From an uncultured Dehalococcoidia bacterium (GTDB taxonomy: Bacteria > Chloroflexota > Dehalococcoidia > Lucifugimonadales > UBA1127): a stretch of 64,000 bases of DNA. The notes under the pieces were generated by a model. It had not been told where the DNA came from. It saw only the letters and a program-made list of their open reading frames with translations, and did no database searches. The stretch lies in assembly GCA_951812285.1 (NCBI GenBank), contig OX638292.1, positions 1,183,699 to 1,247,698 on the forward strand, read 5' to 3'. Below are positions 1,195 to 54,300 of this stretch, one piece after another (within the stretch, counting starts at the first letter, position 1; each line of letters begins with the position of its first letter). The position numbers were made by a program, and so were the translations under genes.

Positions 1195-3252
1195 CTACGC
1201 CTTTGGTTGGATGAGCACGCGGACTGTGCCGTCGCCCTCGTCGCGGCGGTTGATGAAGGTGTGGCCTTCCTTTTCCGACCAGAGCATGACGTCGAAGATG
1301 TTCAGGGCGTCGCCGAGGATGGCTTCCACCATGGAGTGGTGGTCGGCCTCCGTCTGCTTGGCGAGGGCGGCGATGACGCCGGCGCAGGACTTGCCGCGGC
1401 CGTCGATGACGACCCAGCCGGCGCCCTGGGTGACGACCGGCGCGTGCCCGTTGCCGTTGCCCTGGGGCACGTACGGGTCCGGGCGAACGTTGATGGCGCC
1501 CGTCTTGCGCAAGTCGACTTGGCGCTTGAACTCGGCGACGGACTCCCATGCGACGGCGCGGCCTCGGTCGCCGCTGGCGCACACCGCGCCGCGTACGCCG
1601 ACGATGTCAGGATTGACGCGGGCCAGCTCGTCGAGGTCGTCCATCTTCAGGTGGCCTGAGAGGGCCGTGCTCATGCCGAGCTTCTTGCCTTCCAGCACGA
1701 TGTCTCGGAGCTCGTCTTCGCTCAGGAAGTCGAAGAGGTTGCGGCCGTCCTTGATGAGCGTGTCGATGAGGAAGCCGTCGCACTCACCGTCCTTTGCGAG
1801 CTGCACCATGAGGTGCGGGTCGAGACCGCCCTCGTAGAGGAGGTTGTCGGCGAAGAGGGAGCCGACGAGCTTAGTGTTGTAGCCCTCCATCGCGCGGCGG
1901 GACTCTCGGAGCACCTCGACAGCGACGTCGTAGTCGGCCTGCATGAAGCCGACCTTTACGGAGGTGGCGTCCATGACGGCGGCGGCGTAGGCGGCCATCG
2001 CAACGGTGCCAGCCTGGTTGGGGACGACGCCGAGGGTCACGCTGACGTGGTTCTCGGGCTGGATCATCGCGCGCACCTGGCGGACGGTGTTCGGGTGTCC
2101 GGAGCCGACGAGCGCCTCCTGCAGGTTCTTCACGTCCACGACGTCGGCTCCGCCACGCTCGGCTTCGAGGGCCTCGGCGACGTCCTGGACGCTGACCATG
2201 AGCAGCATGCCGGTGGCGAAGAAGGGGCTGTTGTTGCCGGTTAGCCATGCGGCCCTCGGCTGTACCGAGACTGCGGGCTGCGGCGGCCTGGGCTTGAGGG
2301 GCTCGAGCTCGGACTTGAGCTGGGCCTTCTCGGAGGCGGTGAGCTGCGGCAGGGGCTGGCGGGTGGGGCCGCCGGCCATGCCCATGAGCTCGCCCCAGTA
2401 CTTGACCATCGCGACTGGGAGCGCGCCGCCGTTCTTGTCCATGGTGCGCGTCCACCAGGTGTCGTTAAGCTCCTTGAGGCGGCGGAGGTGCTTCTCGTAG
2501 AAGGCGTCGTCGTAGTCGCCGACGGACGCCTTCTCGATGAATTGCACGTAGTAGTTACACTCCGGCGTGTCGAAGCGCCAGTCGGAGGTGTTGGCGAACA
2601 TTACCTGCTGCTGGAAGCCGAGGTCCTGCGCGAATGGGTAGATCCACTCGTCCGGCGTGCTGATGACGTAGTCCTTGCCGAGCGAGAGATGGGTCTCGAT
2701 GGAGAGCTGCTGATTGAAGCTGGCTTCCTTGACGCCGACGACCTGCTGCAGCTCGCAAATGCGGCGCAGGCCCTGCGGGCTCATGACGATGCCAAACTGC
2801 GGCGAGTTGTAGAACATGATGCCGAGGTTGGTGTTGTCGCTGAGGGTCTTGACGTAGTCGATGACCTGGTCCTCTGTCTTGGCCTCCATGTATGGGGCTG
2901 CGACGATGAGGAGGTCGAAGCCGGCGTCCTCGGCGTGGCGGGCGAGGTCAAGGGTCTCGCGGGCCGAGGTGTGCGTGACGTGCGCGCCGACGGGCCATCG
3001 GCCGGCGGCTTCCTCCGCGACGATGTCCATGACGCGGACGCGCTCGTCGTGGGTGAGGCTCCAGAACTCGCCCATGCCCCAGGTGCAGCCGGCGCCCCGG
3101 GTGCCGAGGCTGCGCACGTGGCGCACGTTCCGTCGGAGGCCATCCTCGTCGAGGTCACCATCGTCTGTGAAGGGCGTGATCAGCGTGCTCCACTGCCCCT
3201 TCAGCGTTTCCCATGCCCAGTCCTGTGCTTCATGCGCCTTGTAGTGCGCCAT
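1195..3252 (-). CDS. Three-domain fusion: DHDPS/NAL-family class I aldolase + MfnB-like (5-formylfuran-3-yl)methyl phosphate synthase + TusA/SirA-like domain
   Basis: N-part: TPF..DGDLDEDGLR, GEF.SLT.DER, FYNSP, VGVKEAS. Middle: EALEA..GGADVVDVKN, VKVG, LIDT..KDG..LFDF, DIVGVRGAVC. C-part: IDGRGKSC...W....GH. GGAGGGG RBS before ATG 3252. Confidence 0.8.
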   Translation of the reverse strand: MAHYKAHEAQDWAWETLKGQWSTLITPFTDDGDLDEDGLRRNVRHVRSLGTRGAGCTWGMGEFWSLTHDERVRVMDIVAEEAAGRWPVGAHVTHTSARETLDLARHAEDAGFDLLIVAAPYMEAKTEDQVIDYVKTLSDNTNLGIMFYNSPQFGIVMSPQGLRRICELQQVVGVKEASFNQQLSIETHLSLGKDYVISTPDEWIYPFAQDLGFQQQVMFANTSDWRFDTPECNYYVQFIEKASVGDYDDAFYEKHLRRLKELNDTWWTRTMDKNGGALPVAMVKYWGELMGMAGGPTRQPLPQLTASEKAQLKSELEPLKPRPPQPAVSVQPRAAWLTGNNSPFFATGMLLMVSVQDVAEALEAERGGADVVDVKNLQEALVGSGHPNTVRQVRAMIQPENHVSVTLGVVPNQAGTVAMAAYAAAVMDATSVKVGFMQADYDVAVEVLRESRRAMEGYNTKLVGSLFADNLLYEGGLDPHLMVQLAKDGECDGFLIDTLIKDGRNLFDFLSEDELRDIVLEGKKLGMSTALSGHLKMDDLDELARVNPDIVGVRGAVCASGDRGRAVAWESVAEFKRQVDLRKTGAINVRPDPYVPQGNGNGHAPVVTQGAGWVVIDGRGKSCAGVIAALAKQTEADHHSMVEAILGDALNIFDVMLWSEKEGHTFINRRDEGDGTVRVLIQPKA

Positions 3253-3306
3253 TGTCCCCTCCGTCACACGGCTTGCCACGCACGGGAGGTGCGCGGAGCT
3301 AGATTG

Positions 3307-3846: not shown

Positions 3847-4260
3847 ATGACTGCTGTTGGTTCATGGCTACGGCTTCAAGCGTTCCTGGCCCCGCCGGCT
3901 ATCCTGCTAGCGACAGGACTCCTCTGGTGGGCCGGCGGTTACACAGACTCGCTGTCCATGGCGGGACTCGCGCCGCTTGGAGTACTGGCATATGCTACGT
4001 TTGGGGCAGTCATTGAGGGAGGTACCTACATGGTCCTCTGGGCGCTGGAACAACGCCGAAAGTGGCAAGCAGAACGAGAGCAGCGGGAGCAGCAGCTTCG
4101 CGAGGAACGGGAGCAGCGGGAGCAAAAGCTGCGCGAGGAAGGCCGGGTGAGAGGCCGCGAGGAGTTGGCGGCTCTATTGCTTCGTGAGGCCCGCGAGGGG
4201 GAGTCTGTCAGGCAGACGCTGGAACGAATCGACAACCGCCACACTGAACGGAAGGAATAG
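3847..4260 (+). CDS. Small membrane protein (about 2 TM) with E/R-rich coiled-coil tail
   Basis: Hydrophobic N-half, then MVLWALEQRRKW and EREQREQQLREE repeats. Confidence 0.55.
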   Translation: MTAVGSWLRLQAFLAPPAILLATGLLWWAGGYTDSLSMAGLAPLGVLAYATFGAVIEGGTYMVLWALEQRRKWQAEREQREQQLREEREQREQKLREEGRVRGREELAALLLREAREGESVRQTLERIDNRHTERKE

Positions 4261-4271
4261 CGCCGAGCACT

Positions 4272-4553
4272 ATGGTTCTTTGGGCACTTGAGCAACGCCG
4301 AAAGTGGCGGTTGGAGCGAGAAGAACGGGAGCGCGAGCGCGAAGAGCAACTTCGGAGGGAAAGAGAAGCACGGGAGCAACTGCAACGAGAACTGCAGGAG
4401 CGGTGGCGGGCAGAGGGGCGGAAACAGGGTCACGCCGAGGCCTTGGCGCAGTTCCGGTTGGAGTTGCGGGCGGCCGGCGCAGTGAACGACTCCATATCGG
4501 CATATTTGGAGCGGTTCGAAACCATGTGCAACTGGGAGAAGGCCTCCGGGTGA
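4272..4553 (+). CDS. Soluble coiled-coil paralogue of the C-terminal half of the preceding gene
   Basis: Begins with the identical peptide MVLWALEQRRKW followed by an E/R-rich tract. Confidence 0.5.
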   Translation: MVLWALEQRRKWRLEREEREREREEQLRREREAREQLQRELQERWRAEGRKQGHAEALAQFRLELRAAGAVNDSISAYLERFETMCNWEKASG

Positions 4554-4706: not shown

Positions 4707-6002
4707 CTATGCCTTGGTCGGCACCCACGTCGTCGGGCCGGCCATTCTGGACTTGACGAGCTCGACGGCCTCGAGGGGGGGCATGTCGCCGGGGACGGTG
4801 ACGCGGGCGGTGTGGACGCGGTAGGCCTCGGGGTTGGTGGGCCCCGAGGGTTCGACACCCTCCATAAGTGCGCGGGCGGCGTTGATGAGGCGGCGGCGCA
4901 CCTTAATGATGGACTCGTCAGAGCTTACGAGGCGCTCCTTGCTGCGGTCGGCGCGCGGGCCCCACTGGTCCTCGACGAGGGCGAGGTCCTGGATGGGGAA
5001 GGCCTTGATACCCGTGTAGGAGTAGTTCTTCTGGGCGATGCGGTCGACAAGGTAGTCGTTGTCCTTGTTTTCCTTCGCCATGAAGGAGCCCGGGATCTGC
5101 TCCGGGTATGTGTAGCCGCCGTACTTGTCCTCCATGACCTGCTGCTGCGTGAAGGGGTTGTAGCTCCAGCGGAGCCGGTACATGTAGCAGCTCTCGTCGT
5201 CGATGGGGATGCGCATGTTGCTGGAGTAGACGTCCGGGCCGGCAATGCCGGCGGAGCTGTAGCAGGGCATGTAGAAGTGGCCGATGTTGGCCTGTTGCTG
5301 GCCGTCAGAGGTGCGGGAGACGGCGACGTTCATGACGCCGTAGTCGGTGTCGATGTAGTCGGCGTAGGTGCGGTTGAGGAAGCTGTTGAACACGCCTGCG
5401 CCGAAGCGGCGGCCGGGGTTGCCCTCGTTGTTGTCCAGCGTGCTGTGCAGGAAGAAGGCGTGGGAGGGGTCGTAGTCGCCCTCGAGCGCCTGGAAGTAGT
5501 TGCAGCGGAGGTGGTACTTGCGGACGTAGCGGCGGTCCTCGCCGTACTCCAGCCACTCGAAGCCGGGCTTCGGGGGCTCCTTGTCTGCCGGGCCCATGTA
5601 GGTCCAGACCATGCCGCCGCCCTCGAAGCACGGGTAGGCCTTGACGTTTACCTTGTCCTTGTAGGTCTCACCCTCGGGCGAGTTGGGCAGGTCGACACAC
5701 TTGCCGGAGACGTCGAACTTCCAGCCGTGGTAGACGCAGCGGATGCCGGCTTCCTCGTTTCGGCCGAAGAAGAGCGGCGCGCCACGGTGCGGGCAGTAGG
5801 CGTCGACGAGGCCGGGGTTGCCGTTGGAGTCGCGGAAGGCGATGAGCTTCTCGCTCAGCAGCGTCACGCGGACGGGAGGGCAGTCCGCCGAGGGAATCTC
5901 CTCGGCCAGGAGCGCGGGAATCCAGTGGCGCCGGAACAGGTCGCCCATGGGGGTGCCGGGGCCTGTTTGCGTGAGCATGTCATTTTCTTCGACACTTAGC
6001 AC
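4707..6002 (-). CDS. Rieske non-heme iron oxygenase alpha subunit (phthalate 4,5-dioxygenase/LigXa-like)
   Basis: Rieske motif CPHRGA...RCVYHGW; mononuclear Fe motif EGDYDPSHAFFLH and later QD; GPGTPMGDLFRRHWIP N-terminus. AGGAGG RBS before GTG. Promoter TTGACA(6093-6088)-17-TAGCAT(6070-6065). Confidence 0.9.
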   Translation of the reverse strand: MLSVEENDMLTQTGPGTPMGDLFRRHWIPALLAEEIPSADCPPVRVTLLSEKLIAFRDSNGNPGLVDAYCPHRGAPLFFGRNEEAGIRCVYHGWKFDVSGKCVDLPNSPEGETYKDKVNVKAYPCFEGGGMVWTYMGPADKEPPKPGFEWLEYGEDRRYVRKYHLRCNYFQALEGDYDPSHAFFLHSTLDNNEGNPGRRFGAGVFNSFLNRTYADYIDTDYGVMNVAVSRTSDGQQQANIGHFYMPCYSSAGIAGPDVYSSNMRIPIDDESCYMYRLRWSYNPFTQQQVMEDKYGGYTYPEQIPGSFMAKENKDNDYLVDRIAQKNYSYTGIKAFPIQDLALVEDQWGPRADRSKERLVSSDESIIKVRRRLINAARALMEGVEPSGPTNPEAYRVHTARVTVPGDMPPLEAVELVKSRMAGPTTWVPTKA

Positions 6003-6132
6003 GACGATTCCTCCTTCTGGTCTGTACGGGTCTCGTTCTCGAATTCGGGGTAGAATCTAGGGCGATGCTAGCGCGGGCACATGGGGATGTCAATTTGCGG
6101 CGCGTGCCCGCGCGGCGCGCAAGGAGAAACGA

Positions 6133-6375
6133 ATGACCGAGGAACACAGTGACATCATCACCATGGCCGACATGGCCGCTGTATTTGACGTAACCGACGC
6201 GCTGTCCATCGACCGCGAGAGCATCAGTGTGGAGCTCACGAAGGAGGACCCCGGCGCGGTGCAGCAGGCGGCGAACGGGGAGATTGAGATTACGCTGCCG
6301 CTGACGTCGCCGATTGCGGCGTTCCTTGAGGGCGTGCGGCAGGAGCTCATCGGCATGGGGTATTCGGCGGAGTGA
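6133..6375 (+). CDS. Small acidic hypothetical protein
   Basis: AAGGAG RBS, host-like codon usage, 80 aa. Confidence 0.65.
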   Translation: MTEEHSDIITMADMAAVFDVTDALSIDRESISVELTKEDPGAVQQAANGEIEITLPLTSPIAAFLEGVRQELIGMGYSAE

Positions 6376-6426
6376 GGGGGCGGAAACTAATGCCCAAGGC
6401 ACTACGTTAGCGTCGAGGCGGCACAC
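6376..6426 (-). pseudogene. Remnant of a VapC/PIN toxin N-terminus
   Basis: GTG-CRLDANVV resembles PIN start M-Y-L-L-D-T-N-V-V. It overlaps the antitoxin 3' end and similarity is lost after ~10 codons. Confidence 0.4.
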
Positions 6427-6691
6427 CCGCCCACTCCGAGGTCAAGCGGTTTGGGTGGAGACGCCGCTCCCGTGACGGTGTCAGGTGCTCCGTCCGTGCC
6501 TCCGGAGCAAGGAGGAGTTCCTTCAAGTTCGGCCTCGTCATCCGTTCCAGCTCTTGCCATTGCTCGATGGGAACAAGCACTGCGGTATCCGTTCCTCGTT
6601 TGGTCACGATCTGCGGCCCTTCAGAGAGAGCCGTTTTGAGCAACTCACTGAACCGGACTTTGGAGTCCTCGACCGGCCACTTCCTGCTCAT
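6407..6691 (-). CDS. Phd/YefM-family antitoxin
   Basis: W.VEDSKVRFSELL..A..EGPQIVTKRG.DTAVLVP pattern. Promoter TTGACG(6756-6751)-17-TAGTCT(6733-6728). Confidence 0.85.
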   Translation of the reverse strand: MSRKWPVEDSKVRFSELLKTALSEGPQIVTKRGTDTAVLVPIEQWQELERMTRPNLKELLLAPEARTEHLTPSRERRLHPNRLTSEWAGVPPRR

Positions 6692-6884
6692 GATCTACTC
6701 CGATTCACATTGACCTGACTCGTCACAAGACTAGACAGATTTCATGTCAGCGTCAAAGAGAACCTGCCTATTTCCCCTCCCCGAACACCGGCCCGTCCGG
6801 GTATGGGGCATGCTGCCGCAGGTGTGACAAAGAGCCAACGATATCATCACGGAAGATAGGCGAGGTGGGTCCGCCGCAGCCGCT

Positions 6885-41076: not shown

Positions 41077-44000
41077 TCACACCGGAACCCCGAAATACAG
41101 CTTCACCAGTTCTATGACGTCTTCCTTCGCGAGAAGCCCAGCGAAGTAGTCCTTCACCGCAGCTACGACCTCCTCTCGCTCGATGGTCCCGTTGCGGTTG
41201 GCGTCGTAAGCGTGGTGGGCTGCCTCTGACACCTCAATGGTGACGATGATGATGGCGCCGAATCCTGCCGAGTCCGTTGCAGTGAGGTTGACCGTGTAGG
41301 TGCGTCCGAGCACGAGGTCCACGCCCTCCTTCACCCGGATCTGCCCCGTCTCCTCGTCGACGGTGAAGGAGGCGGCGTCGGTACCGCTGAGGGAGTAGGT
41401 GATGGCAAGGTCGTCCACGTGGGTCGCTTGTATCGGTCCGCCCACTGCCTCCCCGGGCCGGGCGTTCTCTGGCAAGTCTCTCGTGGCGCGGAACCCGTCT
41501 GCGAATTTGGGCGCCTTCGGAGCCGGGCCGAACCCGCCACCACCGCCGCCTCCGCCTCCGCCGCCTGTCGTCGATGAGGTGGACGACCCTCCTCTAGTGT
41601 TGAAGACCCGGGACAGGGCACTCTCGGCGTCAAATGCGCTGTTCAACGCCGCCTGAATCTCGTAGAGGGTGTCCTCCTTCAGATTGGTCAGGTCGAATGT
41701 GACCTCCTGGTTGGTGGTCATTTCCGGGTCCATGGGCGTCCACCCCGACTCGCCGAGTTCTCGACAGCGCATGTGCACCATTTGTTCCGTGCCGTCCGGC
41801 GAGTGTACTTTCACCTTCGCCTTGGCGCTGTCCTTCGTCACGCCGGTCTCAGTCAGCGACTCACTGCTAGGATCCTCACCCAACGTGGTAAACATGAATG
41901 ACTTGGTTGTTTGCCCGGGGAAGTCCCGCTCCAGCGAGGCCTGCAGCTCGTATTCCTCGTCGGGAGCGAGCCCATTGAGCTCAAACTCATGGAAGTGTCC
42001 GGACGGGGCGTCTACCGGACTCCGGGTGTTCCACGGGTCAGTGCCCGACCGGTACCGCGTGTACATGGTGACGGACTCCCTCCGGTCCTTGGAACTGACG
42101 CTGACGACGACTTTCCGCTCGGACTTTTCGTGGACGTGGACGCCGGTCGGCGTCGGCACCAGAGTGGTGAACGTCCGTCTGTGCGCTCGGCGAAAGCCGG
42201 TGTCCGTATCCGCCTCTATCTCGTAGTCCATCCCGGCTGTGAGGCCGGAAACGGTGTAGGCCACCGTCGATTCCACGTTTCGGTCCGGGTTGTCGAGGGT
42301 GACGGTTGGCGCGCTAACCCAACTGCCCGCGGGAAGCGTCCGATACCGGGTGTTCACCGGCTGGTCTTCGGGCGCAGCAAACTTCACCTTCGTCGTGAGG
42401 TCGACCGTGCCCTCCGTGATTGTGTCCACGTCAATGCCAATGACTTTGGCAGGCTCTGATCTGATCGTGGTGGAAGCGGTAGCCCCTCGTGGGAAGGTGC
42501 TTTCCAGGGACGCTTCGAATTCGTACAGCGTGTCCGGCTCCAGGCCGGTGGGCTGCATCTCGACCTTTTCCTCGTCCGTCGTAGTCGCTTCGAAGACGTT
42601 CGAGTTCCACTCTCGCTCGCCTGCAATGCGGTAGCGCAGGTAGGCGGTCTTGGTCTCGGCGCCGCCATGGGCAAAGATGATGTCCATAGTGAAGTCGAAC
42701 CCGTCTATTGTGAGGATCTGGATGCGAGACACGCTGGGATCGGGCGGCAGCGTCTCCATGACCCTTGGCCGGGTGTCAGTGGCGGGGAACGATGAGCTCA
42801 ATGAGGCTTCCACCTGGTACTTCCGTCCCATTGCGAGTCCAGTGAGCGAGAATTCGGCCGTACCGGTGTCTGTGTCCTCGGATTGGGCGCTGCTCCACCG
42901 GCCGTTGGGCAATTGCCGGTGACGCAGGTAGACGCGCTGGGTGCCGCTCGGGCTTGCTATCGAGACCGTGGCTTCTGCAGTGGTCTGCGTAATGCTGCCG
43001 AGGGTCAGTCCGCTGAGGGTGGGCGACGCCTGGAGCGTCGTGAGCGAGAGCCGCGTTGTCCCACCCGAAGGGAACGTATCGTCGAGAGAGACCTCGACGT
43101 CGTACCTGACGGCAACGTCCAGGCCCGCCAACGGGAACACGACCTCGTCCGAAGTCGCGTTGCGGTCTGGCGTGGTCACCCAAGAGGGCTGTCCGGGAGC
43201 GCGGTGGCGGAGGTAGACCGTGGGCGAACGATCGTGGCGGTCCGCCACGTCGACCTTGACCTCGGCGGAGTTCGACGTCGTGGAGTCCACGTAGGCAAGG
43301 GACACCCGCGGGTCAGGCGGCAAAGTATCAAAATTGAGCCCCAGGCGAACAAACCTCAGTTCTGGAGAGTCATATCGTCCTATCACGATGTACCCAGTAT
43401 CCGGCAAGAGACCGGACACCTTCGCGGTTCCTGTATTGTCCGAGACCGTGAGTTTCACACGGGCCCTAATGGCACGTGGAATTGGGATATCGATCAGTTC
43501 AATGTTGAAGCTCTGCGCCCTGGCTATCGGATCACTGAGGGTAAGCGTCAGATCGGCTCCGTTCTTGGTGATGTTATCGGCTGTGAAGCTGGCGACTCCC
43601 GGAGGTTCGGTCTGCACCTGCGCGGTGACCGTCTCGCCGCTGGGGAAGGTGTCGTCCATGGATGCCCGCACCTCATAGACGCCGAGCGCCAGCAGTCCTG
43701 TCAGTCTGTGCTCGCCCGTTCCGGTGGTTGTCACGATGTCCGGCAGGTCGATCCAAGACTGCTCCCCCCGCTGCCGGTATTGCACGTACACCGTCTGAGC
43801 AGCGCCGTTGGGGGCGGCAAGGTTCACCGTGACCGTCGCCTCCGTCGCCGTAATGCCGCCGACCTGCATGGAAAACAGCGTGGGCGGCGCGGTTTCGAAT
43901 GTGTCACGCAACGTTCCCTGCGTGGGGAACGTGGGGTCAGTCGAGGCCTCGAGCTGGTACTGGTTGCCGGACATGAAGTGGGGCAGCTTGTGCACGAGCC

Positions 44001-47000
44001 GGGTCTTCGACGACCGCGTAGTCCCCACCTCCACGTACGTCTGACTCCAAGGGCCGGTAGGCGACTCTGTGCGAAAGCGATAGTACGTGTTAACCACGTA
44101 GAGACTGTGCCCCTCGTAGTCGACGTTGACCTCGGCTTCCGTCTGGTTCGCCGACTTTACTTCAAACCCGACGATGGTGGCGGGCAGCGTCGTTACCGAT
44201 ACCGTCTCCGTCGCGTAGCTCGGGAAGCTGTTGTACGTGGAGACCTCTACCTCGTACTCCGCGCCCGCCCGAATCCTCCTGAGCAGGAGCGTGGCAGTGT
44301 CCGTCGCCGTTCTCGTGGTCGGGCCGGACGACCACCGCGCTTCGGACCCGGCAGGGCGGTAGCGGACGTAGACGGCGCGATTGCTGCCGTCCGTGTGCTC
44401 CAGCGTCAGGTTGAGGGTCGCGCTGTCCTGGGTTACATCGACCGCCTCAACCGCCGAGACCGTTGCCCACAGCGTCGTGAAACGCACTGACTTGGTGGTG
44501 TTCGGGGTGAAATCGCTGTCCAGAGACACGGAGATTTCGTATCCGGTCTCTTGCGAGAGGCCCTCAACGGTTTCGACGATCTGCACGGCAAGTTCCAGAA
44601 GCAACGGGGGATCGAATGGGGGAGGCGGAGGAGAGGGAAGCAATCGGATCCAGGGCCCCAGGGGTGAGGTGTTCCTGTACCGTGTGTAAAACTCCCGCAC
44701 GTTTTCGCTGCTGACGCCGGCCAGGTGGTTGATGTGACTTGCCTCTGTCTGCGTCAGGCTGTAGATGCCCACACTCACTATGCGGGCCGGCCGTGTAGTG
44801 AAGGTGACCGGGAGGCTTCCAGAGTCAAGGTCACTGAGCGTGGACACCTGCACCTCATAGGTGACCCCACCGAGGAGTGGCGTCACCTCCATGGCGAAGC
44901 TGGCCGTGGTGCTTATGGCGGTCGGCCCGTCAAGCCAGTCCGTGTCGCCGACCTCGCGATACCTGGAGTAGACGGCCACCTCGCGGCCATCGGCGAATTG
45001 AATGTTGCCCGCAATCGTCGCCGAATTCTCCAGCGTTCTCTGCAATCTCACTGAAGAGACGAGGGGGGCGAGCGTGGTGATTGTTTCGGGACTGGTCTCG
45101 CTGGGAGGGAAGCTGTTGTCCAGGGACACCTCGACGTCGTAATCGGTTCCGGGTGTCAACCCTCGAATAACCAGGAGCGCTTCAAGCACGGCGTCGTTTG
45201 CCAACGTCAAGACCTGCTGGGTTGAGCTCCACGGATCGGATGGCGTGGTGCGATAGCGCAAGTAGACGGGCAGACGGCTGATCAAGTTCTGGATCCGTAC
45301 CCCTACGCTAATCTCGGTGCCCTGTGCGCTTGGGAACAATTCAACGATCGCGGGGTCCGGCGGAGCGGAAACAAATCGTTCGCTCAGCGTGTCGTTGCCC
45401 GGGAAGGTATTGGTCTGCGACGCCCGCACCTGCATGTGCGTCCCGGGCGTCAGTCCGGAGAGCGTGAAGTCCACCGTCGAGGTCGAGGTTGTATCCGTTT
45501 GGAGGCTTCCCCATGACCCGGAAGGCAGCTCCCGGTGCTGCAAGTAGACCGTTTCCGTGCCCTGGGGGTCGGCGATGGTGACCGTCACCGTTGCGCCGGT
45601 CTGGGTGATGCTGCCGGACCCAATGCTCAGCTGTTGCAGGCTGGGAGTGGCCTGCAGCGATGTGAAGGTGGTGGACTGTGTCTCGCCCGGGGGGAAGGTC
45701 GCGTCCAGCGACATTTCCGCCTCGTACGCGGTTTCGGCGCTCAGGGACGTCAACCGGACGTCCCAGATGGACAGCCCGCCGCTGCCTGACCTGGTCGACG
45801 ACCAGGGTCCGTCCGGGCTCTGGCGGTAACGCAAGTGCATGCGCGTCCCGGACTGGGCGTTTGCCACGGTGCCCCTGATGTGCGTCGCGCTGGTGGAGAC
45901 GGCCACGACCGAAACGTTGGTGAGGCTGGCTGGTGTGTGCAACGTTTCGAATTCCTCACTCTCGGACGCATCCCCGGGGAATTGGCTATCAAGCGAGGCT
46001 TGCACGTTGTACGACTCGCCCGGCAGGAGACCCGTCAACGTTGTTGTCCCCGTGTCAGTAGCGGTGGTGAGGGAGTCGGTCAGGTACTCCAGTGGGTATT
46101 GTCGGGTGCGGTAGTACTGGAGGTTGACCACTTGAGACTCCCCGTTTGGCTCATCGAGGGTCACCGTCACATCGGCGGTGGTCTGGGCGATGTTGTCCAC
46201 GCTGACGTCCGTCACGAGTGGCGGAGCAGTCGTGAACGTGCCGGACACCGTCTCTCCCTGCGGGAAGGTGTCGTCCAGCGAGGCCTGCACGTCGTACGTC
46301 GTATCGGTCGACAAGCCGGTCAGGGAGACCTCGCCCGTGGCCGTGCGCGTCACGACGGCGGAAGCGTCCGTCCATGTGACGTCGGCCTGCTTGCGGTACT
46401 GCAGGTACACGGTCTGCGCCTCGCCGTTGGGTGCGCCGATGTCGATCGTGACGGTGGCGGCGGTCTGGCCTGAGTCGTCAACCCGGACGCCCTCCAGGTA
46501 GGGAGGTAGCGTGTCGAACGTGGTTGAGGCTGTCGCGTCCGCCGGGAAGGAGAGGTCTATCGAGGCTTCGACTTCGTAGCCGGTGTTGGACGTGAGGCCG
46601 TACAGAAGAACGCTCGCCTCATCAGTGCTGCTGTGGGTCCGGTGGTAGGTCCACTGGCCCGAGGGCGTGACCCGATAGCGCGCAAAGACGTACTGCCTCG
46701 CTCCGTTGGGCTCCTGAATGGTGACGTCGAAGCTCATGCGAGTCTGGTGCGCCAGACCTCTCTGGCTTATGGCCGTCACTTTGGGCGGCTGTGTTGCGAC
46801 TGGCAGGGCAACGACGCCCGAGGCGAACCCGTTGTCGAGTGAGGCTTCAACGTCGTAGGTCGTGCCGGAGGTCAGGCTGGACACCGTGAACGTCGCGCTG
46901 GTGGTCGAGGTGGACTCTGAGGGCGCCGTCGTCCACGGGTCAGTTCCTTCCGCGCGGTAGCGAAGGTGCACCGTCAACGACGCGGAACTGGGGTTGGCCA

Positions 47001-47214
47001 GGTCGACCGCCACCGTGAACGAGGTCTGCGTGGTCTCGCTGACCGTCACAGCGGTCACCGATGGCGTCTGGGCGAGGGTGTCGTGGGGAGGCAGCAGCGC
47101 CAGCGCCACCGCTGCAATCGCGGCCGCCAACCCGACGAACAAACGACCACGGCCAAGCCACCCAGCAGTCGCCTGGCGTGCCTTGGGCTGGGCTGCGTAC
47201 TTGAGCACCCTCAT
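41077..47214 (-). CDS. Giant secreted protein with 19 FN3-like repeats, cadherin-like and C-terminal EF-hand/dockerin-like module
   Basis: Signal peptide ending TLA-Q. ~97-aa repeats V.LRYR....W...L.GL...T.Y.V.AS.D..F. Gly tract then shared C-terminus. Confidence 0.85.
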   Translation of the reverse strand: MRVLKYAAQPKARQATAGWLGRGRLFVGLAAAIAAVALALLPPHDTLAQTPSVTAVTVSETTQTSFTVAVDLANPSSASLTVHLRYRAEGTDPWTTAPSESTSTTSATFTVSSLTSGTTYDVEASLDNGFASGVVALPVATQPPKVTAISQRGLAHQTRMSFDVTIQEPNGARQYVFARYRVTPSGQWTYHRTHSSTDEASVLLYGLTSNTGYEVEASIDLSFPADATASTTFDTLPPYLEGVRVDDSGQTAATVTIDIGAPNGEAQTVYLQYRKQADVTWTDASAVVTRTATGEVSLTGLSTDTTYDVQASLDDTFPQGETVSGTFTTAPPLVTDVSVDNIAQTTADVTVTLDEPNGESQVVNLQYYRTRQYPLEYLTDSLTTATDTGTTTLTGLLPGESYNVQASLDSQFPGDASESEEFETLHTPASLTNVSVVAVSTSATHIRGTVANAQSGTRMHLRYRQSPDGPWSSTRSGSGGLSIWDVRLTSLSAETAYEAEMSLDATFPPGETQSTTFTSLQATPSLQQLSIGSGSITQTGATVTVTIADPQGTETVYLQHRELPSGSWGSLQTDTTSTSTVDFTLSGLTPGTHMQVRASQTNTFPGNDTLSERFVSAPPDPAIVELFPSAQGTEISVGVRIQNLISRLPVYLRYRTTPSDPWSSTQQVLTLANDAVLEALLVIRGLTPGTDYDVEVSLDNSFPPSETSPETITTLAPLVSSVRLQRTLENSATIAGNIQFADGREVAVYSRYREVGDTDWLDGPTAISTTASFAMEVTPLLGGVTYEVQVSTLSDLDSGSLPVTFTTRPARIVSVGIYSLTQTEASHINHLAGVSSENVREFYTRYRNTSPLGPWIRLLPSPPPPPFDPPLLLELAVQIVETVEGLSQETGYEISVSLDSDFTPNTTKSVRFTTLWATVSAVEAVDVTQDSATLNLTLEHTDGSNRAVYVRYRPAGSEARWSSGPTTRTATDTATLLLRRIRAGAEYEVEVSTYNSFPSYATETVSVTTLPATIVGFEVKSANQTEAEVNVDYEGHSLYVVNTYYRFRTESPTGPWSQTYVEVGTTRSSKTRLVHKLPHFMSGNQYQLEASTDPTFPTQGTLRDTFETAPPTLFSMQVGGITATEATVTVNLAAPNGAAQTVYVQYRQRGEQSWIDLPDIVTTTGTGEHRLTGLLALGVYEVRASMDDTFPSGETVTAQVQTEPPGVASFTADNITKNGADLTLTLSDPIARAQSFNIELIDIPIPRAIRARVKLTVSDNTGTAKVSGLLPDTGYIVIGRYDSPELRFVRLGLNFDTLPPDPRVSLAYVDSTTSNSAEVKVDVADRHDRSPTVYLRHRAPGQPSWVTTPDRNATSDEVVFPLAGLDVAVRYDVEVSLDDTFPSGGTTRLSLTTLQASPTLSGLTLGSITQTTAEATVSIASPSGTQRVYLRHRQLPNGRWSSAQSEDTDTGTAEFSLTGLAMGRKYQVEASLSSSFPATDTRPRVMETLPPDPSVSRIQILTIDGFDFTMDIIFAHGGAETKTAYLRYRIAGEREWNSNVFEATTTDEEKVEMQPTGLEPDTLYEFEASLESTFPRGATASTTIRSEPAKVIGIDVDTITEGTVDLTTKVKFAAPEDQPVNTRYRTLPAGSWVSAPTVTLDNPDRNVESTVAYTVSGLTAGMDYEIEADTDTGFRRAHRRTFTTLVPTPTGVHVHEKSERKVVVSVSSKDRRESVTMYTRYRSGTDPWNTRSPVDAPSGHFHEFELNGLAPDEEYELQASLERDFPGQTTKSFMFTTLGEDPSSESLTETGVTKDSAKAKVKVHSPDGTEQMVHMRCRELGESGWTPMDPEMTTNQEVTFDLTNLKEDTLYEIQAALNSAFDAESALSRVFNTRGGSSTSSTTGGGGGGGGGGGFGPAPKAPKFADGFRATRDLPENARPGEAVGGPIQATHVDDLAITYSLSGTDAASFTVDEETGQIRVKEGVDLVLGRTYTVNLTATDSAGFGAIIIVTIEVSEAAHHAYDANRNGTIEREEVVAAVKDYFAGLLAKEDVIELVKLYFGVPV

Positions 47215-47626: not shown

Positions 47627-48379
47627 ATGACGAGGCTATTCGGCGCTGCCGTCCTGCTGGTTGGTTCGCTCTTCATGCTTGCTGCTTGCGCCGGTGCCCC
47701 CTCGGCAACGCAGACCGAGCCGTCGCCCGACCTCGCGCCCGTACAGGCCGACGGGAACGATGGCCCGCCCGACACGGAAGTGGACATCACCGTGGGCGAT
47801 GAGTCTGAGGAGCAACCGGAGTCAAAGTCTGACGATGACTCTGAATCTGAGTCCAAGGACAGCACCGAGGATGCGCCGTCAGCGACCCCTATCCCCCCTT
47901 CACCCGCAAGCGTCAAGAGCCTTCCCGACGCCCCCCTGGAAGCCAAGGAGTACTCCTGGAAGGACGGCGACCGGACGTTCACCGTGGTCCTCCAGCCTGA
48001 CCTTGCATTGCTGGACATTGGAGGCGGCGAACCGCCCAAGGACGCTCTGGCGAACACCGGGAAGGGCGCAATCGTGGAGAGCACGGGCGGCAAGAGCGCA
48101 CTGCCGGTCTTCAAATCCCCGTCCGGCGAGCTCATGACGCTCCCCGGCGGCGTGCTGCTGGTGCTAGAGCCGAAGCTGACTGCGTCTGAGGTCAACTCCT
48201 TCTTCGCCCAAAACGGCATCAAGCGCGACAAGGTGTCGGAGCTGAGCTACGTCACAAACGGCTTCTTCATCGAGACTGAACCGGGATTCCCCTCGCTGGA
48301 CCTGGCCAACAAGCTTGCTGCTCTGGATGACGTCATCATCTCCAGCCCCAATTGGTGGACGGAAATTTCCACGAAGTGA
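47627..48379 (+). CDS. Lipoprotein, candidate stand-alone propeptide/external chaperone of the downstream S8 protease
   Basis: Lipobox LAAC, acidic disordered linker, compact C-domain PVF......LPGGV.L....SL.LAN.L....V..SSPNWW...K. TGATG overlap with the protease gene. Confidence 0.6.
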   Translation: MTRLFGAAVLLVGSLFMLAACAGAPSATQTEPSPDLAPVQADGNDGPPDTEVDITVGDESEEQPESKSDDDSESESKDSTEDAPSATPIPPSPASVKSLPDAPLEAKEYSWKDGDRTFTVVLQPDLALLDIGGGEPPKDALANTGKGAIVESTGGKSALPVFKSPSGELMTLPGGVLLVLEPKLTASEVNSFFAQNGIKRDKVSELSYVTNGFFIETEPGFPSLDLANKLAALDDVIISSPNWWTEISTK

Positions 48380-51300
48380 TGGTTCCGCCCGAACGCACTT
48401 CCGTTGCTGCCGACACGGAGATGCCCCTCTCCGCGATGCCGAACGCGCGCAGCCGCCAGCGCGCCGCGCCTCGTATGTCGACCATCGTGGACCGAATGGG
48501 CCTGCTGCTGGTCCCGGCGCTCGTGCTGATGCTCCTGCTGTCTCTCACAGCGGATCCCGTGTCCGCTCAGTCCGGCACGCCGAGCGCTCCCACCCTCGAC
48601 GCCGTGTCCACCGGCGACGGCGTCCTGAACGCCGAGTGGACCGCGCCGTCGAACACCGGCTCCTCCGCCATCACGGCCTACGACATCCGTTTCATTGAGA
48701 GCAGCGCGTCCGACAAGGCGGACGAACACTGGACGGTGGTGGAGGATGTCTGGGTGCTGTCCGGCGAGCTCGAGGCCACCGTCAGGGGCGTGGACAACGG
48801 CGTCCAGTACGACGTGCAGGTGCGCGCCGTGAACTCGCGGGGCAACGGTGCGTGGTCATCGACGGTCACCGGCACTCCCGCCGACCACGGCGGCAACCGA
48901 AACTCCGCGACGGAGATCGCGCTGCAGACCCCAACGCCCGGCCTCATCTCCTCCAGTTCCGACACCGACTATTTCCGCTTTACGCTCTCGGAGCCCACGG
49001 GCGTATTCATCTACACCACCAGCTACTACTCCGGCTTTCTGCCAACGACGGGCGATCTGCGCAACAGCGGTGGTGCGGTCATCAAGTCGGACGACGGCGA
49101 CAGCGGCATGCGCCAACACGGCGACCAGCTCTTCATCTGGGACTCGCTCAGCGCCGGCACGTACTACGTCAGCGTGGAGGCACCCCAGTCCGGCGCATAC
49201 ACACTCCACACGCAGCTCGTGCCCGATGGGACGAGCGTCGACGACGCCGTTGACCTCACCCTGGGCGGCGTCACAGGGGGCATCCTCGACACCGCTTCCG
49301 GCGACGAGGACTTCTTCCGGCTCCACCTGACCCAGCAGGCGGACGTCGTCATTCGCATCGAACGCGCGAATGAGGGCCTCGACCCTATCGCCACTCTGAC
49401 GGACGATGGCGGCAACGTCATAGCCGTCCATGACGACAGCTACCTCGAGGGCGACAGGGGCAAGCACTTCATCATCAACAGGAGTTTGGACGCCGGGGTC
49501 TACTACCTGAAGGTGAATGCCGCGCCGGAATCCACGTATGAGGTCTGCAGGGGCTTTGTGCCCCGGCTCAGGCTAAGGTCCTTTGTGGACTGCATCGACA
49601 CTGAGACCAAGGACGCAGCCACCACAGGAGGGCCGTACCTCATCGGCGTCCACGAGACGCCGCGGTCAGGGTCCTCGAACTCCTCCGCTCGGCCGCTGCC
49701 CGTCGACGGCGCCGTCATCACCGCCGGCCACATCAGCACGCGAGGCGAGTCCGATTACTACAGCATCACCGTGGACGAACCCACGCGGGTGGCGGTCCAG
49801 GTCGTCAGTGACGAGGTCGACACCACCGGGACCTACTACTACCTGGGCAACAGGGAGGCTCCGGCGTATCTAAAGCCGACGGACTACGTCCCCGGCGGCT
49901 TTGGGTTCATCCTCTACGCCAATCTCGAGGCGGGTACGCACCAGGTCCGCGTGCGCGCCGGCAGATCAACCGAAACTGGCGGCTACACGGTCCGGGTGGT
50001 CGAGGACACTGAGTACGCGGATTTCTTCGACAACTGTTCCTCCATCACCACCCCCTACGACGATCCCCTGTACGGCTGCCAGTGGTACCTCAACAACACA
50101 GGCCAGAACTCGGGCGTGGCAGCCGGCATCGCGGGCGAGGACATCAACGTGGAGGACGTCTGGGCAGGCGGAAACCTCGGCGAGGGCATCATCATCGCCA
50201 TGGTCGACGACGGTCTGGAATTCGAGCACGAGGACCTTTGGGAAAACGTGGACGTCTCACTGAACCGGGACTATTCCCATGGCCGGGGTCAATTTGAGGA
50301 CCACTACGACCGTGGCACCCAGCTCGCTGGCCTCGCCGCCGGCCGGGACAATGCGATTGGCATGAGAGGCGTGGCCCCCCGCGCGACAATCGTCAACTAC
50401 AACGCCCTTCGCTACGGCTTCACATACGACATTGCGAGCGCAATGGTCAGCAATCTGGAAGACGTCGCAGTCTCCAACAACAGTTGGGGGCACATTGGGG
50501 GACCCGGGTTCAACTATTCCAGCAGCGTATGGGAAAGGGCCATCGAGCGGGGCCTTTTGGAAGGGTTCGACGACAAAGGGACCTTTTACACGATCTACTC
50601 GGGGTCGGGAGCGAACGATGGTGACTATTCCAACCTGAGCGGCTACGCGAACCACTACGGGGTCACCGCCGTGTGTGCCGTGAACGACCTTGGCCAGCGT
50701 TCCTCATACTCGGAACGAGGGTCCAACGTCTGGGTCTGCGCACCCTCCAGCGACGATGACGAAGGCAGGCAGGGCCTCACCTCGACGTTGCCGTACAACC
50801 GCTACGCATCCAACATCGGCGGCTCCGGCGCCTCAACCGCTCTGGTCTCAGGCGTTGCCGCCCTCGTTCGCAAGGCAAACCCGGACCTGACGTGGCGCGA
50901 CGTGCGGCTGGTCCTCGCCGGGTCGGCCCGCCAGAACCATACCGCCGACTCCGATTGGTCGACGGGCCCCCTCAAGTACGGTTCAACCACTGAAAATTAC
51001 AAATTCAACCACTCCTACGGCTTCGGGGTCGTGGACGCCAAGGCCGCCGTAGACCTGGCAGCCACCTGGACCAACCTGCCTCGATTCAAGTCTCTGACGG
51101 CGGTCTCAGGTGAACTGAATCTCAGAATTGAGGACATGGGGACCGTGAGCCAGGAGTTGACCGTGGGCCCCGGCGTGGACTTCATCGAGTACATCGACGT
51201 CACCGTTGACCTCTTTCACCCGTCCTTCCGCGACCTGAAAATCGAGCTGGTCTCACCCTCCAACGCCGTGTCAGCGCTGAGCGAGACCTACGATGGGCCG

Positions 51301-54300
51301 GACAAATACTCGATTGACGAAGATTTCCGGTTTGGGACCGCCAAACACCTCGGGGAGGACGCAGCCGGAACGTGGACTCTCCGGATATCCGATGGTGTTG
51401 CGGACCACCTCGGCACGCTGGATTCCTGGAGCCTGCAGATATACGGTCATGGCTCTTCTGTAAGGACTACGTCCATCCACACCGTCATCCCCGGCAGCGA
51501 GTCACTCGAGGTTGGCTGGAAGGGGATCGACGACCCCGACATAGGGGCCTTTGACGTTCGCTACATCCAGAGCGACGCCACCGACAAGGCCGACGCGAAC
51601 TGGACAGTTGTCGATGACGCCTGGACTGGCGCCGGCCCCCTTGAATACGAGGTTACCGGACTCACCAACGGGACCACCTATGACCTGCAGGCGCGTGGCG
51701 TCGGGGTCACGGAGCACGGGGAGTGGTCGGACGTCGTCACCGGCGCTCCCGCCGCCGCGGCCGACGCCGTCCCCGCGGTCATCGCCGCGCTCGGCGAGGA
51801 ACATGCGCTCGGCGTCGTATGGAGCGCGCCGTCCAACCCGGGTGCGACGACGACTGCCTACGACGTACGCTACATCCGCAGCGATGCCAGCAGCAAGGCC
51901 GACGCCGACTGGAGCCTGGTGGACGACGCGTTGACGGACCTCGACGGCAACCTTGCCTACACGATAGCGGGCCTCATGAACAACGTGATGTATGACGTCC
52001 AGGTGCGCGCCGTGAGCTCCAGCGGCGACGGCGCGTGGTCCCCCACCGCCAAGGGCCTGCCCCGTGAGGTCGGCAATGACCTGCGCACAGCCTCGCCCCT
52101 CGCGTTTGCTCTTCCCTTCCAGGCCGCCATGGACTTCTCCAACGACATTGACGTGTACCGAATAGACCTTGCCGAGGAAACAGAGGTCTACTTGTATTCC
52201 GAGGGCCCCACGGACACGGTTGCCGAGCTTCTTGACGCCGACGGCAATTCCTTGCGGTTCAATGACGACTCTGGAGCTTTCCTGAATTTTTCCATTCAGG
52301 AAACCCTCCAGCCGGGCGTCTACTTCCTTGAAGTCACGGGTTGGAGCGGATCCACCGGCAACTATCAGCTCTGGATGCTGATGCCGGAGGAGGAACAGGA
52401 CATCGGTGATGCACTCACGCTTGAACTCGGAAGTTCCATTGATGCCAACATCTCCGTGGACGACGCCGACTACTACAAGCTGGTCTTGACTGGGGAAACT
52501 GAGGTCCTCCTATACAGTTCCGGCGATACTGACACTTATGCGGAGCTTCTCAATGCAGACGAAATGTCCCTGGTGACTGACGACGACGGCTTTCTGCCCA
52601 TCGGCGTCCGGAACTTTACGATCCGGCGCACCCTTGCCGCCGGCACGTATTTCCTGAAAGTCACCGGCCATTTCAATGCGGTGGGCGACTACACAGTTCA
52701 CGCCAAGGCTGTGACCGCCCCCGGCAGTACGCCGGCAGACGCCCTCTCCTTGACGCTAAATTCGCCCGAGGGCGGGAACATTGACCCCGCCGGTGACGCA
52801 GACTACTACACGTTCACCCTGGCGGCTGCGGACTATGTAAGAATCAGTGCGGTCCCGGATTCCAATGCATCGAACCCCCCGGACGTGAAGGGAGAGATTC
52901 TTGACGCTAGCCTTAACTCGCTCGAGGCGTACTTCATAGACTCCTACTACCTCGAGGCATTCGCGATTTACGACTACCTGCCGGCCGGCACCTACTATCT
53001 CAAGGTAACCGGAGATACGGATGCCGTCACTGAGTCGTACATCGTCATGGTGTCTGACGACACGTATGTCCGTGAACTGACGGAAATGTGCGCAGACATA
53101 TTCCCGGAGGTTTCAGACCCCTTCTTCGGCTGCCAGTGGTACCTGCGCAGCGAGGGGCAGCTGCCCGCCCTCGCAGACTCCGACATCAACATCGGTGACG
53201 TCTGGGACGACTACAAGGGGGACGGGATAACCGTCGCCATCGTCGACACCGGTCTGGACTACCGGCACGGCGACCTGCGTGGAGACAGGGTCGACGAGTC
53301 CAAGAACCACTCCTACGTGGAGGGAAGAGACGTCGATGAATTCTCCCCCTCCCACGGCACCGGTGTCGCAGGCATCATCGCCGGCCGTGAGAACGACATC
53401 GGCATGCGCGGCGTTGCCCCGGAGTCCACGATCTATGCCTATAACCTTCTGCAACATTTTAGCGAAATGAACGAGGCCGACGCGATGAGCAGGGACTCTG
53501 CCACCACCGCCGTCTACAACAACAGCTGGGGAGTGCCTGATTTCGCCGCCGGGCCCGGAGCAGCCTCGTCCCTCATCAAGCTGGCGATTGAAGACGGCGT
53601 CATCAACGGCTACGGTGGCAAGGGCGCCTTCTACGCCTGGGCCGCCGGGAATGGCCATAACTTGGGCGACTACTCCACACTGGAGGAGTACTCTAACCTC
53701 TTCGGCGTAACCGCCGTGTGCGCCGTCAACTCGTACGGGAAGCGCTCCACCTATTCCGAGATGGGCTCCAACCTCTGGGTGTGCGGCAGCTCCAACGGCG
53801 GCGGCCGCGGGATCTTGACGACCACGCACAGAAACTCATTCACGCAGTTCTTCGGCGGGACCAGCGCTGCCTCGCCGATGGTCGCCGGCGTCGCCGCCCT
53901 GGTGCGCGACGCCAACAACGCCCTCACCTGGCGCGACGTCAAGCTCATCCTCGCCGCGACGGCGCAGAAGATCGACCCGGACAACCTGGGCTGGGAGACA
54001 GGCGCGCTCAAGTACGGCTCCACGTCCGACCGCTACGACTTCAACCATGAGTTCGGATTCGGCCTCGTGGACGCCGAGGCCGCCGTTGAGGCGGCCGAGA
54101 ACTGGACCCTGCTGCCCAAGTTCCGGCGGGTCACCGTCGCATCCAGCGCCGTTGAGCGTGCAATCCCGGACAGGCCTCTTCAGGGGAGCCCGACGTTCAC
54201 AGAATTCACCCTCACGGTGGGCCCCTACGTAGACTTCATCGAGCACGTGCAGATCGACGCCCACATCGCGCACGAGTCGTTCAGGGAGCTCCAGATCGAG

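Follow-up and report, generated by a model that had tools for sequence, protein, structure and literature searches.

To our knowledge, the only role known for MfnB is to catalyse the first step in making methanofuran and methylofuran. Free-standing TusA proteins carry the usual motif D-x-x-G-x-x-C-P-x-P, and in ThiG and BexX a Schiff-base TIM barrel is fed sulfur by a carrier protein during thiazole and 2-thiosugar synthesis, respectively. In excerpts of PMC6604932, two lysines and two aspartates are given as essential for MfnB, with the Schiff base formed on Lys27, and excerpts of PMC11365854 discuss its residues K155 and R217. Here we describe a fusion gene in a stretch of 64,000 nucleotides (nt), referred to below as the window, from an uncultured Dehalococcoidia bacterium (GenBank assembly GCA_951812285.1, contig OX638292.1, positions 1,183,699 to 1,247,698 of the forward strand), which joins a DHDPS-like aldolase barrel, an MfnB-like barrel and a TusA-fold domain in one protein. 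The middle domain resembles MfnB (MJ1099; PDB 4rc1/4u9p) in being a TIM-barrel class I aldolase with a Schiff-base lysine and the essential residues; unlike MfnB, the clade to which it belongs always occurs with a C-terminal TusA-fold domain and a DHDPS-like partner, and, unlike MfnB hosts, its host has no detected methanofuran-dependent enzymes. Since the host lacks methanofuran-using enzymes, the fusion probably makes a metabolite or cofactor not yet known.

The gene is one open frame on the minus strand (window 1195..3279, 694 amino acids (aa) from a GTG; the coordinates of its parts are on the same strand). We take the ATG at 3252 as the start because a Shine-Dalgarno sequence, GGAGGGG, lies 6 nt upstream of it and M1 is invariant in an alignment of 45 homologues. 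The open reading frame (ORF) and its translation thus give a coding sequence at 1195..3252 (ATG 3250-3252, stop 1195-1197) for a protein of 685 aa. A conserved N-terminal extension (aa 1-17; 3202..3252), seen in the alignment and with a helix at residues 6-16 in the AlphaFold2 (AF2) model, precedes the DHDPS/NAL-type class I aldolase barrel (aa 18-317; 2302..3201), which was delimited with Pfam, alignments to DapA structures, AF2 and Foldseek. Linker 1 (aa 318-348; 2209..2301) is Pro-rich and poorly conserved in the alignment, with 13% invariant positions, and its length varies among homologues, some genomes having open frames of 710-755 aa. It is followed by the MfnB-like barrel of the 4-HFC-P synthase family (aa 349-576; 1525..2208), placed by Pfam, by alignment to MJ1099 (4rc1) and by comparing 63 sequences of the clade with 106 canonical ones. 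Linker 2 (aa 577-611; 1420..1524) is likewise poorly conserved, with 11% invariant positions, and predicted to be disordered: the 24 residues ahead of the last domain are disordered in the AF2 model, the predicted local distance difference test (pLDDT) being below 50 over residues 1-24 of the C-terminal model. The TusA-fold domain (aa 612-685; 1198..1419), assigned from alignments, AF2 and structural matches, contains the invariant Cys623.

A sequence-only reading of this DNA had described one unbroken 685-aa ORF with three domains, and this description is borne out by the ORF, by Pfam, by the protein family, and by AF2 together with VIA-align. All the active-site motifs that it had named were located, namely FYNSP (Y148) and VGVKEA (K175) in the aldolase domain, DVK (D373, K375), VKVG (K433) and IDT..KDG (D497, K501) in the MfnB-like barrel, and IDGRGKSC (C623) in the TusA-like domain, where the cysteine is kept and the proline lost, as it had stated. 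It is therefore confirmed that window 1195-3252 on the minus strand is one gene with three domains. The existence of split two-gene forms in a sister lineage speaks for an assembly chimera or a lost stop having joined separate genes, a concern that the same reading had raised. Against it, 63 loci, drawn from many independent assemblies and including closed chromosomes, have the fused frame intact; in the tree described below, one group of 40 rows (SH-aLRT 98) contains 34 fused forms; and contigs of four runs from three studies bridge both domain junctions with no gaps or frameshift (X1, 1100-2140 and 2111-2598; X2, 2050-2406; X3, 2039-2442; X5, 1102-2398). Such an artefact can be practically dismissed. 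X1, the best holder among the bridging runs, may be the source sample, and among 24 listed runs there was no RNA holder of the gene.

The Pfam family 4HFCP_synth (PF04476) matched aa 351-575 with an E-value of 8e-55 and 186.5 bits (cut-off 22.4), covering profile positions 1-227 of 228, so that the proposed kinship of the middle domain with MfnB withstood the profile search on which it had been made to depend. The barrel also aligned to MJ1099 (4rc1) over its full length (E 6e-42), with D373, K375, K433, D497 and K501 pairing with D25, K27, K85, D151 and K155 of MJ1099. Residues D373, K375, K433, D469, D497, K501, R554 and C558 are conserved in the alignment, and the essential two lysines and two aspartates are kept in every one of the 63 distinct clade sequences. 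The canonical set of 106 MfnBs has 29 positions with a conservation of 85% or more; 21 of these are kept, and the other eight are changed and fixed in the 63 clade sequences. In the same comparison, Val409 (nt 2026-2028) is fixed in the clade where 94% of the canonical enzymes have Asp, and Phe467 (nt 1852-1854) where 89% have Tyr; the fixation of these two replacements suggests that at least one reaction step differs from that of canonical MfnB. Among 1.84 billion cluster representatives, only three clusters (454, 699 and 330 aa) matched the full MfnB-TusA span at 59% identity or more, the other matches above 50% identity being fragments; below these came stand-alone MfnBs of about 240 aa with 30-46% identity, the named ones archaeal (Methanophagales, Odinarchaeota).

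The fusion is not for methanofuran biosynthesis, to judge from its own, 94%-complete genome and from a sample of 401 genomes of its class. The own genome, assembled as one contig of 2.86 Mb, has one PF04476 match; Ftr, Mch and Fae were not detected in it, while methanogen controls matched, and Ftr scored above cut-off in none of 401 class genomes, 24 carriers of the fusion included, the one sub-threshold match being in a non-carrier. The earlier remark that the window holds no other methanofuran or C1 gene can thus be extended to the whole genome and, for Ftr, across the class sample. An ordinary MfnB for methanofuran or methylofuran, fused by chance to two unrelated domains, would agree with the full-length PF04476 and MJ1099 matches and the kept essential residues, as well as with the name that NCBI gives to one split-form member, '(5-formylfuran-3-yl)methyl phosphate synthase'. 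Besides the missing Ftr, Mch and Fae, what makes it very improbable is that the domain scores under all three MfnB equivalog cut-offs and sits on a long branch, with the eight changed positions mentioned above.

At aa 18-317, the first barrel reached 113.5 bits with DHDPS (PF00701; E 1e-32, cut-off 22.1). It shares with the DapA/NAL superfamily the whole fold, the Schiff-base Lys175 (nt 2728-2730) and Tyr148 (nt 2809-2811), both invariant in the 45 sequences of the homologue alignment, in which Cys56 (nt 3085-3087) is nearly invariant. The AF2 model (pLDDT 88.4) gave Foldseek matches at E 3e-20, with TMt 0.83-0.87 to DapA structures. The differences lie in the active site and in the C-terminal third, which diverges from all solved DHDPS/NAL members, the PDB profile search aligning mainly the first 200 residues. 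Where DapA structures have GTTGE, PYY and NIPxR, the fusion has WGMGE, PYM and NSPQF, so that the equivalents of Tyr107 and Arg138 are Met and Phe; in DapA (E. coli numbering), Thr44 and Tyr107 form the relay and Arg138 binds aspartate semialdehyde. Identity with DapA was rejected, since the domain scored 87.6 bits against the dapA equivalog TIGR00674 (cut-off 206.15), the relay and Arg residues are absent, and the genome has its own DapA, a separate DHDPS match of 309 bits. The models for DapA, KdgD, NAL and archaeal KD(P)G aldolase gave comparable scores, none over cut-off, and DapA, NAL, MosA, YagE and KDA dehydratase matched the barrel about equally in profile and fold searches; therefore we give it no subfamily name.

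That the third domain has the TusA fold is weakly indicated by Pfam alone and holds up on the family scores, the AF2 model and the structural matches taken together. Alone, the domain scored 20.1 bits against PF01206 (cut-off 28.6), and all 64 C-termini of the family matched this profile at E 0.1 or better, the best at 1.8e-7. The AF2 model, computed from the alignment of these C-termini, has the order beta-alpha-beta-alpha-beta-beta, with pLDDT above 90 over model residues 28-100. In VIA-align its six best matches are sulfur carriers (Z 10.4-12.1; root-mean-square deviation 1.8-3.4 Å over 72-77 residues): the SirA-like 3hz7 (12.1), YeeD/TsuB 8k1r_B (11.9) and 8j4c (11.8), E. coli TusA 3lvj (11.3) and 3lvk (10.9), and YhhP 1dcj (10.4); the next fold (Alba, IF3-C) reached a Z of at most 9.2. 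Other searches gave less: Foldseek E-values for this model were weak, all 0.019 or above, a PDB profile search with the C-terminal alignment returned noise and the TusA-like 1pav at E 1.1, and a search of the ESM Atlas with the domain gave no usable match. Cys623 (nt 1384-1386), in the motif DGRGKSCAG, is placed by the alignment and the AF2 model at the N-terminus of helix 1, and the Cys motif is found in all 118 listed fused forms and, by pattern, in 114 of 117 listed split forms, two of the remaining three showing it by eye. The domain thus resembles TusA, SirA and YeeD (TsuB) (PF01206; 3lvj, 3hz7, 8k1r) in its fold and in a helix-1 cysteine after D-x-(R/T)-G, the Arg being replaced by Thr in most split forms, and it differs from free-standing TusA in being tethered to the MfnB-like barrel and in having the CPxP prolines replaced.

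The architecture belongs to a widespread family. A protein homologue search returned 504 matches, of which the best 120 all carried PF00701 and PF04476 at 70-93% identity, and 105 related stretches were found in species-representative genomes. We kept 77 loci of 61-96% identity, almost every one of which bears the label Dehalococcoidia, SAR202 or Chloroflexota, one being labelled Bipolaricaulia and one Planctomycetota; the complete fused frame is present in 63 of them, and all 63 carry all three domains. There are at least 118 full-length fused clusters and at least 117 two-domain MfnB-TusA clusters, named at their source 'hypothetical protein' or 'UPF0264/DHDPS/TusA-related'. Carriers form a subset of the Dehalococcoidia, of SAR202 type and in many cases of sponge or ocean origin: strong matches (E<1e-130) occurred in 24 of the 401 genomes of the class sample, own genome included, whereas the other 22 matches were a stand-alone DHDPS-like paralogue of 42% identity (as in G076) or weak DapA-type proteins. 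Cultures of SAR202 bacteria are reported in PMC10444878. When sampling was widened to the phylum, again with 401 genomes, nothing matched besides the own genome and a stand-alone MfnB of 38% identity.

Some carriers encode the two halves as separate genes lying side by side. Among 1095 matches from a search for shorter proteins, almost all of the best 120 were MfnB-TusA proteins about 327 aa long, and in the sister lineage the split form consists of two overlapping genes, DHDPS-like and then MfnB-TusA; in locus L081, for example, the DHDPS-like gene (5783-6826) and the MfnB-TusA gene (4798-5790) have 8 bp in common. In ten of ten further loci from other lineages the DHDPS-like part either adjoins MfnB-TusA (five split) or is fused to it (five, about 710 aa). 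The three modules always travel together. A quick maximum-likelihood tree, built without bootstraps from random subsets of 35 fused, 35 split and 20 canonical rows, united fused with split forms in a single clade (SH-aLRT 100), separated from canonical MfnB by a branch of 2.29 substitutions per site; within it, 29 split rows grouped together, as did 34 fused rows with six 'split' rows (SH-aLRT 98), and some of the short rows may be truncated gene calls. In 57 loci the median identity of the fusion to the window protein was 70%, compared with 51% for SpeE, 52% for GHMP kinase and 60% for aspartokinase, taken as best matches to the own genome in the same loci. The fusion is thus better conserved than neighbouring housekeeping genes, and its three modules, all intact, are under strong purifying selection.

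We tentatively propose that the fusion may be a self-contained three-module enzyme that makes a small metabolite or cofactor precursor other than methanofuran, furan-type and possibly sulfur-bearing, from triose phosphate and pyruvate. The MfnB-like barrel would bind triose phosphate as a Schiff base on Lys375 and, by MfnB-type chemistry (phosphate elimination, aldol condensation, cyclisation and dehydration), produce a phospho-aldehyde of furan type, or a close variant of it. The DHDPS-like barrel would form a pyruvate-type enamine on Lys175 and couple it to this aldehyde or, alternatively, would supply a 2-oxo-acid or aldehyde partner. The TusA-like domain, on its disordered tether of about 35 residues, would carry sulfane sulfur on Cys623 to one of the two active sites; the cysteine could be loaded by one of the cysteine desulfurase-type enzymes of the genome, where eight Aminotran_5 matches are candidates, and the product would then bear sulfur. 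A profile search of the genome with PF01206 gave no match above cut-off.

A novel furan or thio-heterocycle could be the product, a possibility that the sequence-only reading had raised along with the breakdown of such a cofactor. In a more specific version, a remodelled MfnB-like barrel would, as the ring closes, take sulfane sulfur from the tethered Cys623, or else the persulfide would be attacked by the pyruvate enamine on Lys175. The module would then make a thiophene or thio-substituted furan carboxylate phosphate, from which a hitherto undescribed sulfur cofactor or metabolite, specific to ocean- and sponge-dwelling SAR202-type Dehalococcoidia, would derive; we consider this version speculative and rather unlikely. 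ThiG and BexX offer an analogy, in that a lysine-imine barrel together with a protein-bound sulfur donor yields a sulfur heterocycle or a thiosugar. They differ in having a barrel of another family and in using ThiS/MoaD-type thiocarboxylates as carriers, not TusA persulfides. Because ThiG has no match in the own genome (G000), a replacement of thiazole synthase was considered, and it was rejected since ThiE (TMP-TENI) and ThiC have no match there either and Thi4 matches are fragments covering only the N-terminal 45-50 profile positions; a genome without ThiG, ThiE and ThiC indicates that the fusion is not a thiamin enzyme. With this set of genes, the organism looks like a thiamin auxotroph.

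Several observations weigh against the proposal of a three-module furan-type synthase. The MfnB-like barrel scores below the equivalog cut-offs of the three NCBIfam models compared (187.6 versus 341, 182.8 versus 304 and 107.6 versus 297; the NCBIfam MfnB models include NF002573 and NF002575). In the aldolase barrel both Thr of the carboxylate-binding GTTGE loop and the Tyr107 equivalent are gone, and therefore pyruvate itself may not be its substrate. Within the whole protein, PF01206 matches aa 615-682 with only 15.9 bits (E 0.012), under its cut-off, and the CPxP prolines are replaced (C-A-G-V), with the Cys kept at the start of helix 1. The recurrent neighbours described below, an acetate-CoA ligase and a Mo-hydroxylase, find no account in the proposal, and no cysteine desulfurase, rhodanese or DsrE gene is among the recurrent neighbours. 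The order in which the two barrels would act is a guess. Finally, all the genomes are related metagenome-assembled genomes, so that the locus counts are not independent.

Some of these points would fit a product free of sulfur, in which case the two barrels would make a pyruvate-extended furan phosphate and the TusA-fold cysteine would tether an aldehyde, as a thiohemiacetal, swinging between the sites, or the domain would be structural or regulatory. The long, disordered and poorly conserved tether, the lost prolines and sub-threshold Pfam score, the Thr in place of the DxRG Arg in most split forms, and the lack of sulfur-trafficking genes nearby are all consistent with this alternative. It is made doubtful by the presence, in essentially all members, of a Cys exactly at the position of the TusA persulfide cysteine at the N-terminus of helix 1, and by the fact that the best structural matches are sulfur carriers; moreover, we know of no precedent for a TusA fold as an aldehyde carrier.

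The 63 fused loci show three lineage-specific syntenies, A (5 loci), B (34) and C (17), and seven loci fit none. Type A, that of the window lineage, has a Rid gene on the opposite strand, the fusion, a PaREP1-like ORF and an acetate-CoA ligase of PRK04319 type (865 bits versus 729). In the window the PaREP1-family ORF (PF05942, E 3e-15; 149 aa) lies at 686-1135 on the minus strand, between the fusion and the ligase, which occupies 1-567 on the same strand and continues upstream in the genome (L079, 6491-8266). In about ten loci of opposite gene order, weakly similar PaREP1-type ORFs (26-34% identity) also stand between ligase and fusion. Type B comprises an MFS gene on the opposite strand, an acetate-CoA ligase of TIGR02188 type (1004 bits versus 725), often merely 46-93 bp 5' of the fusion, then the fusion, speE, speH and others. 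Type C comprises ileS, fpg and the fusion, followed in 15 loci by a three-subunit molybdenum enzyme of the XDH family. Locus ORFs came from a simple longest-ORF script, and shadow ORFs occur.

An acetate-CoA ligase (Acs) is thus found on the strand of the fusion in 39 of the 63 loci, as two Acs types, downstream in the window lineage and upstream in 34; that of the window is the only Acs-type ligase among five AMP-binding paralogues in a crude set of 2718 ORFs. The XDH/aldehyde-oxidase-family molybdenum enzyme (L067, 10318-14091, and 14 further loci) lies on the same strand about 250 bp after the fusion; its nearest model is 4-hydroxybenzoyl-CoA reductase, and it passes no equivalog cut-off. 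Neither the ligase nor the molybdenum enzyme occurs in the ten further split-form or long-linker loci. ORF clustering over the 77 loci and those ten revealed no universal partner gene. The divergently transcribed Rid protein had been put forward as a partner that could handle reaction intermediates, and we rejected it, since Rid adjoins the fusion in only six loci, all of them the closest relatives of the window, with fusions 92-96% identical, and is not adjacent in any other lineage.

These neighbours would suit a catabolic or salvage enzyme, in which the DHDPS-like barrel would cleave a 2-keto-3-deoxy (phospho- or sulfo-) sugar acid to pyruvate and a triose-type aldehyde, the MfnB-like barrel would process the aldehyde, for instance by eliminating a phosphate or sulfur group, and the TusA-like Cys would take up the released sulfur or be only regulatory. 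The DHDPS/NAL superfamily consists mostly of catabolic lyases, and its subfamily models score alike on the first barrel. The recurrent ligase of two types, in the window the only one of its kind in the genome, the molybdenum enzyme after 15 of the 63 genes, and the patchy distribution (24 of 401 class genomes) also point this way. So does the 42%-identical stand-alone DHDPS-like paralogue, which lies beside UbiD-like and flavoprotein genes. On the other side, the fusion is more conserved than its housekeeping neighbours, and such conservation is unusual for a peripheral catabolic enzyme; the lineages have no transporter, regulator or other catabolic gene in common; the ligase and molybdenum enzyme are missing from the split-form and long-linker loci; and the MfnB chemistry described in excerpts of PMC6604932 is irreversible synthesis. 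We consider a catabolic role unlikely, though a live rival, and we retain the three-module biosynthetic enzyme as our tentative proposal.

The stand-alone paralogue was observed in a four-gene run (L082, 65-4203), the other genes of which encode a UbiD-family decarboxylase, a FAD_binding_2/Succ_DH_flav_C flavoprotein and a Fer2_3 iron-sulfur protein. Elsewhere in the window, a Rieske oxygenase with a LigXa-like C-terminal domain (4707-6002, minus strand) stands beside the fusion only in its closest relatives. Two tandem small ORFs on the plus strand (3847-4260 and 4272-4553; 137 and 93 aa) have in common a start region of 61 nt, 77% identical, and both contain Glu/Arg-rich repeats of 33 nt (REQREQ..); neither has a Pfam family. 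A Phd/YefM-type antitoxin ORF (6407-6691, minus strand) has no obvious toxin partner in the list of nearby ORFs. Two giant proteins, of 2045 aa (41077-47214, minus strand) and 3195 aa (48352-57939, plus strand), are adhesin-like surface proteins with fibronectin-III, cadherin, Calx-beta, DUF11, subtilase and P-domain modules.

The sequence-only reading knew of no described protein with this architecture. A full-text literature search, supplements lying outside it, indeed found no paper on the three-domain architecture, and the architecture itself proved not to be rare, as the cluster counts given above indicate. The same full-text literature held nothing pairing MfnB with SAR202, SAR202 with dihydrodipicolinate, or formylfuran with TusA. 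Among the matches listed for MfnB, 4-HFC-P, UPF0264 or DUF556 none dealt with this protein, and among those listed for methanofuran with Chloroflexi names the word 'methanofuran' was absent; a text match of PMC10364804 to DUF556 was discarded, being actually to DUF5565.

The fusion defines a distinct MfnB clade in aerobic-type, globally abundant marine and sponge Chloroflexi without detected methanofuran-dependent enzymes. Its conservation, together with the lock of the MfnB-like barrel to a sulfur-carrier fold and to a second Schiff-base barrel, suggests that its product, be it a cofactor or a signature metabolite, is one not yet described. Because the unit is compact, comprising one or two genes, its direct expression and assay are possible, and the family could widen the enzymology by which biological furan, and possibly thiophene, rings are formed from triose phosphates.

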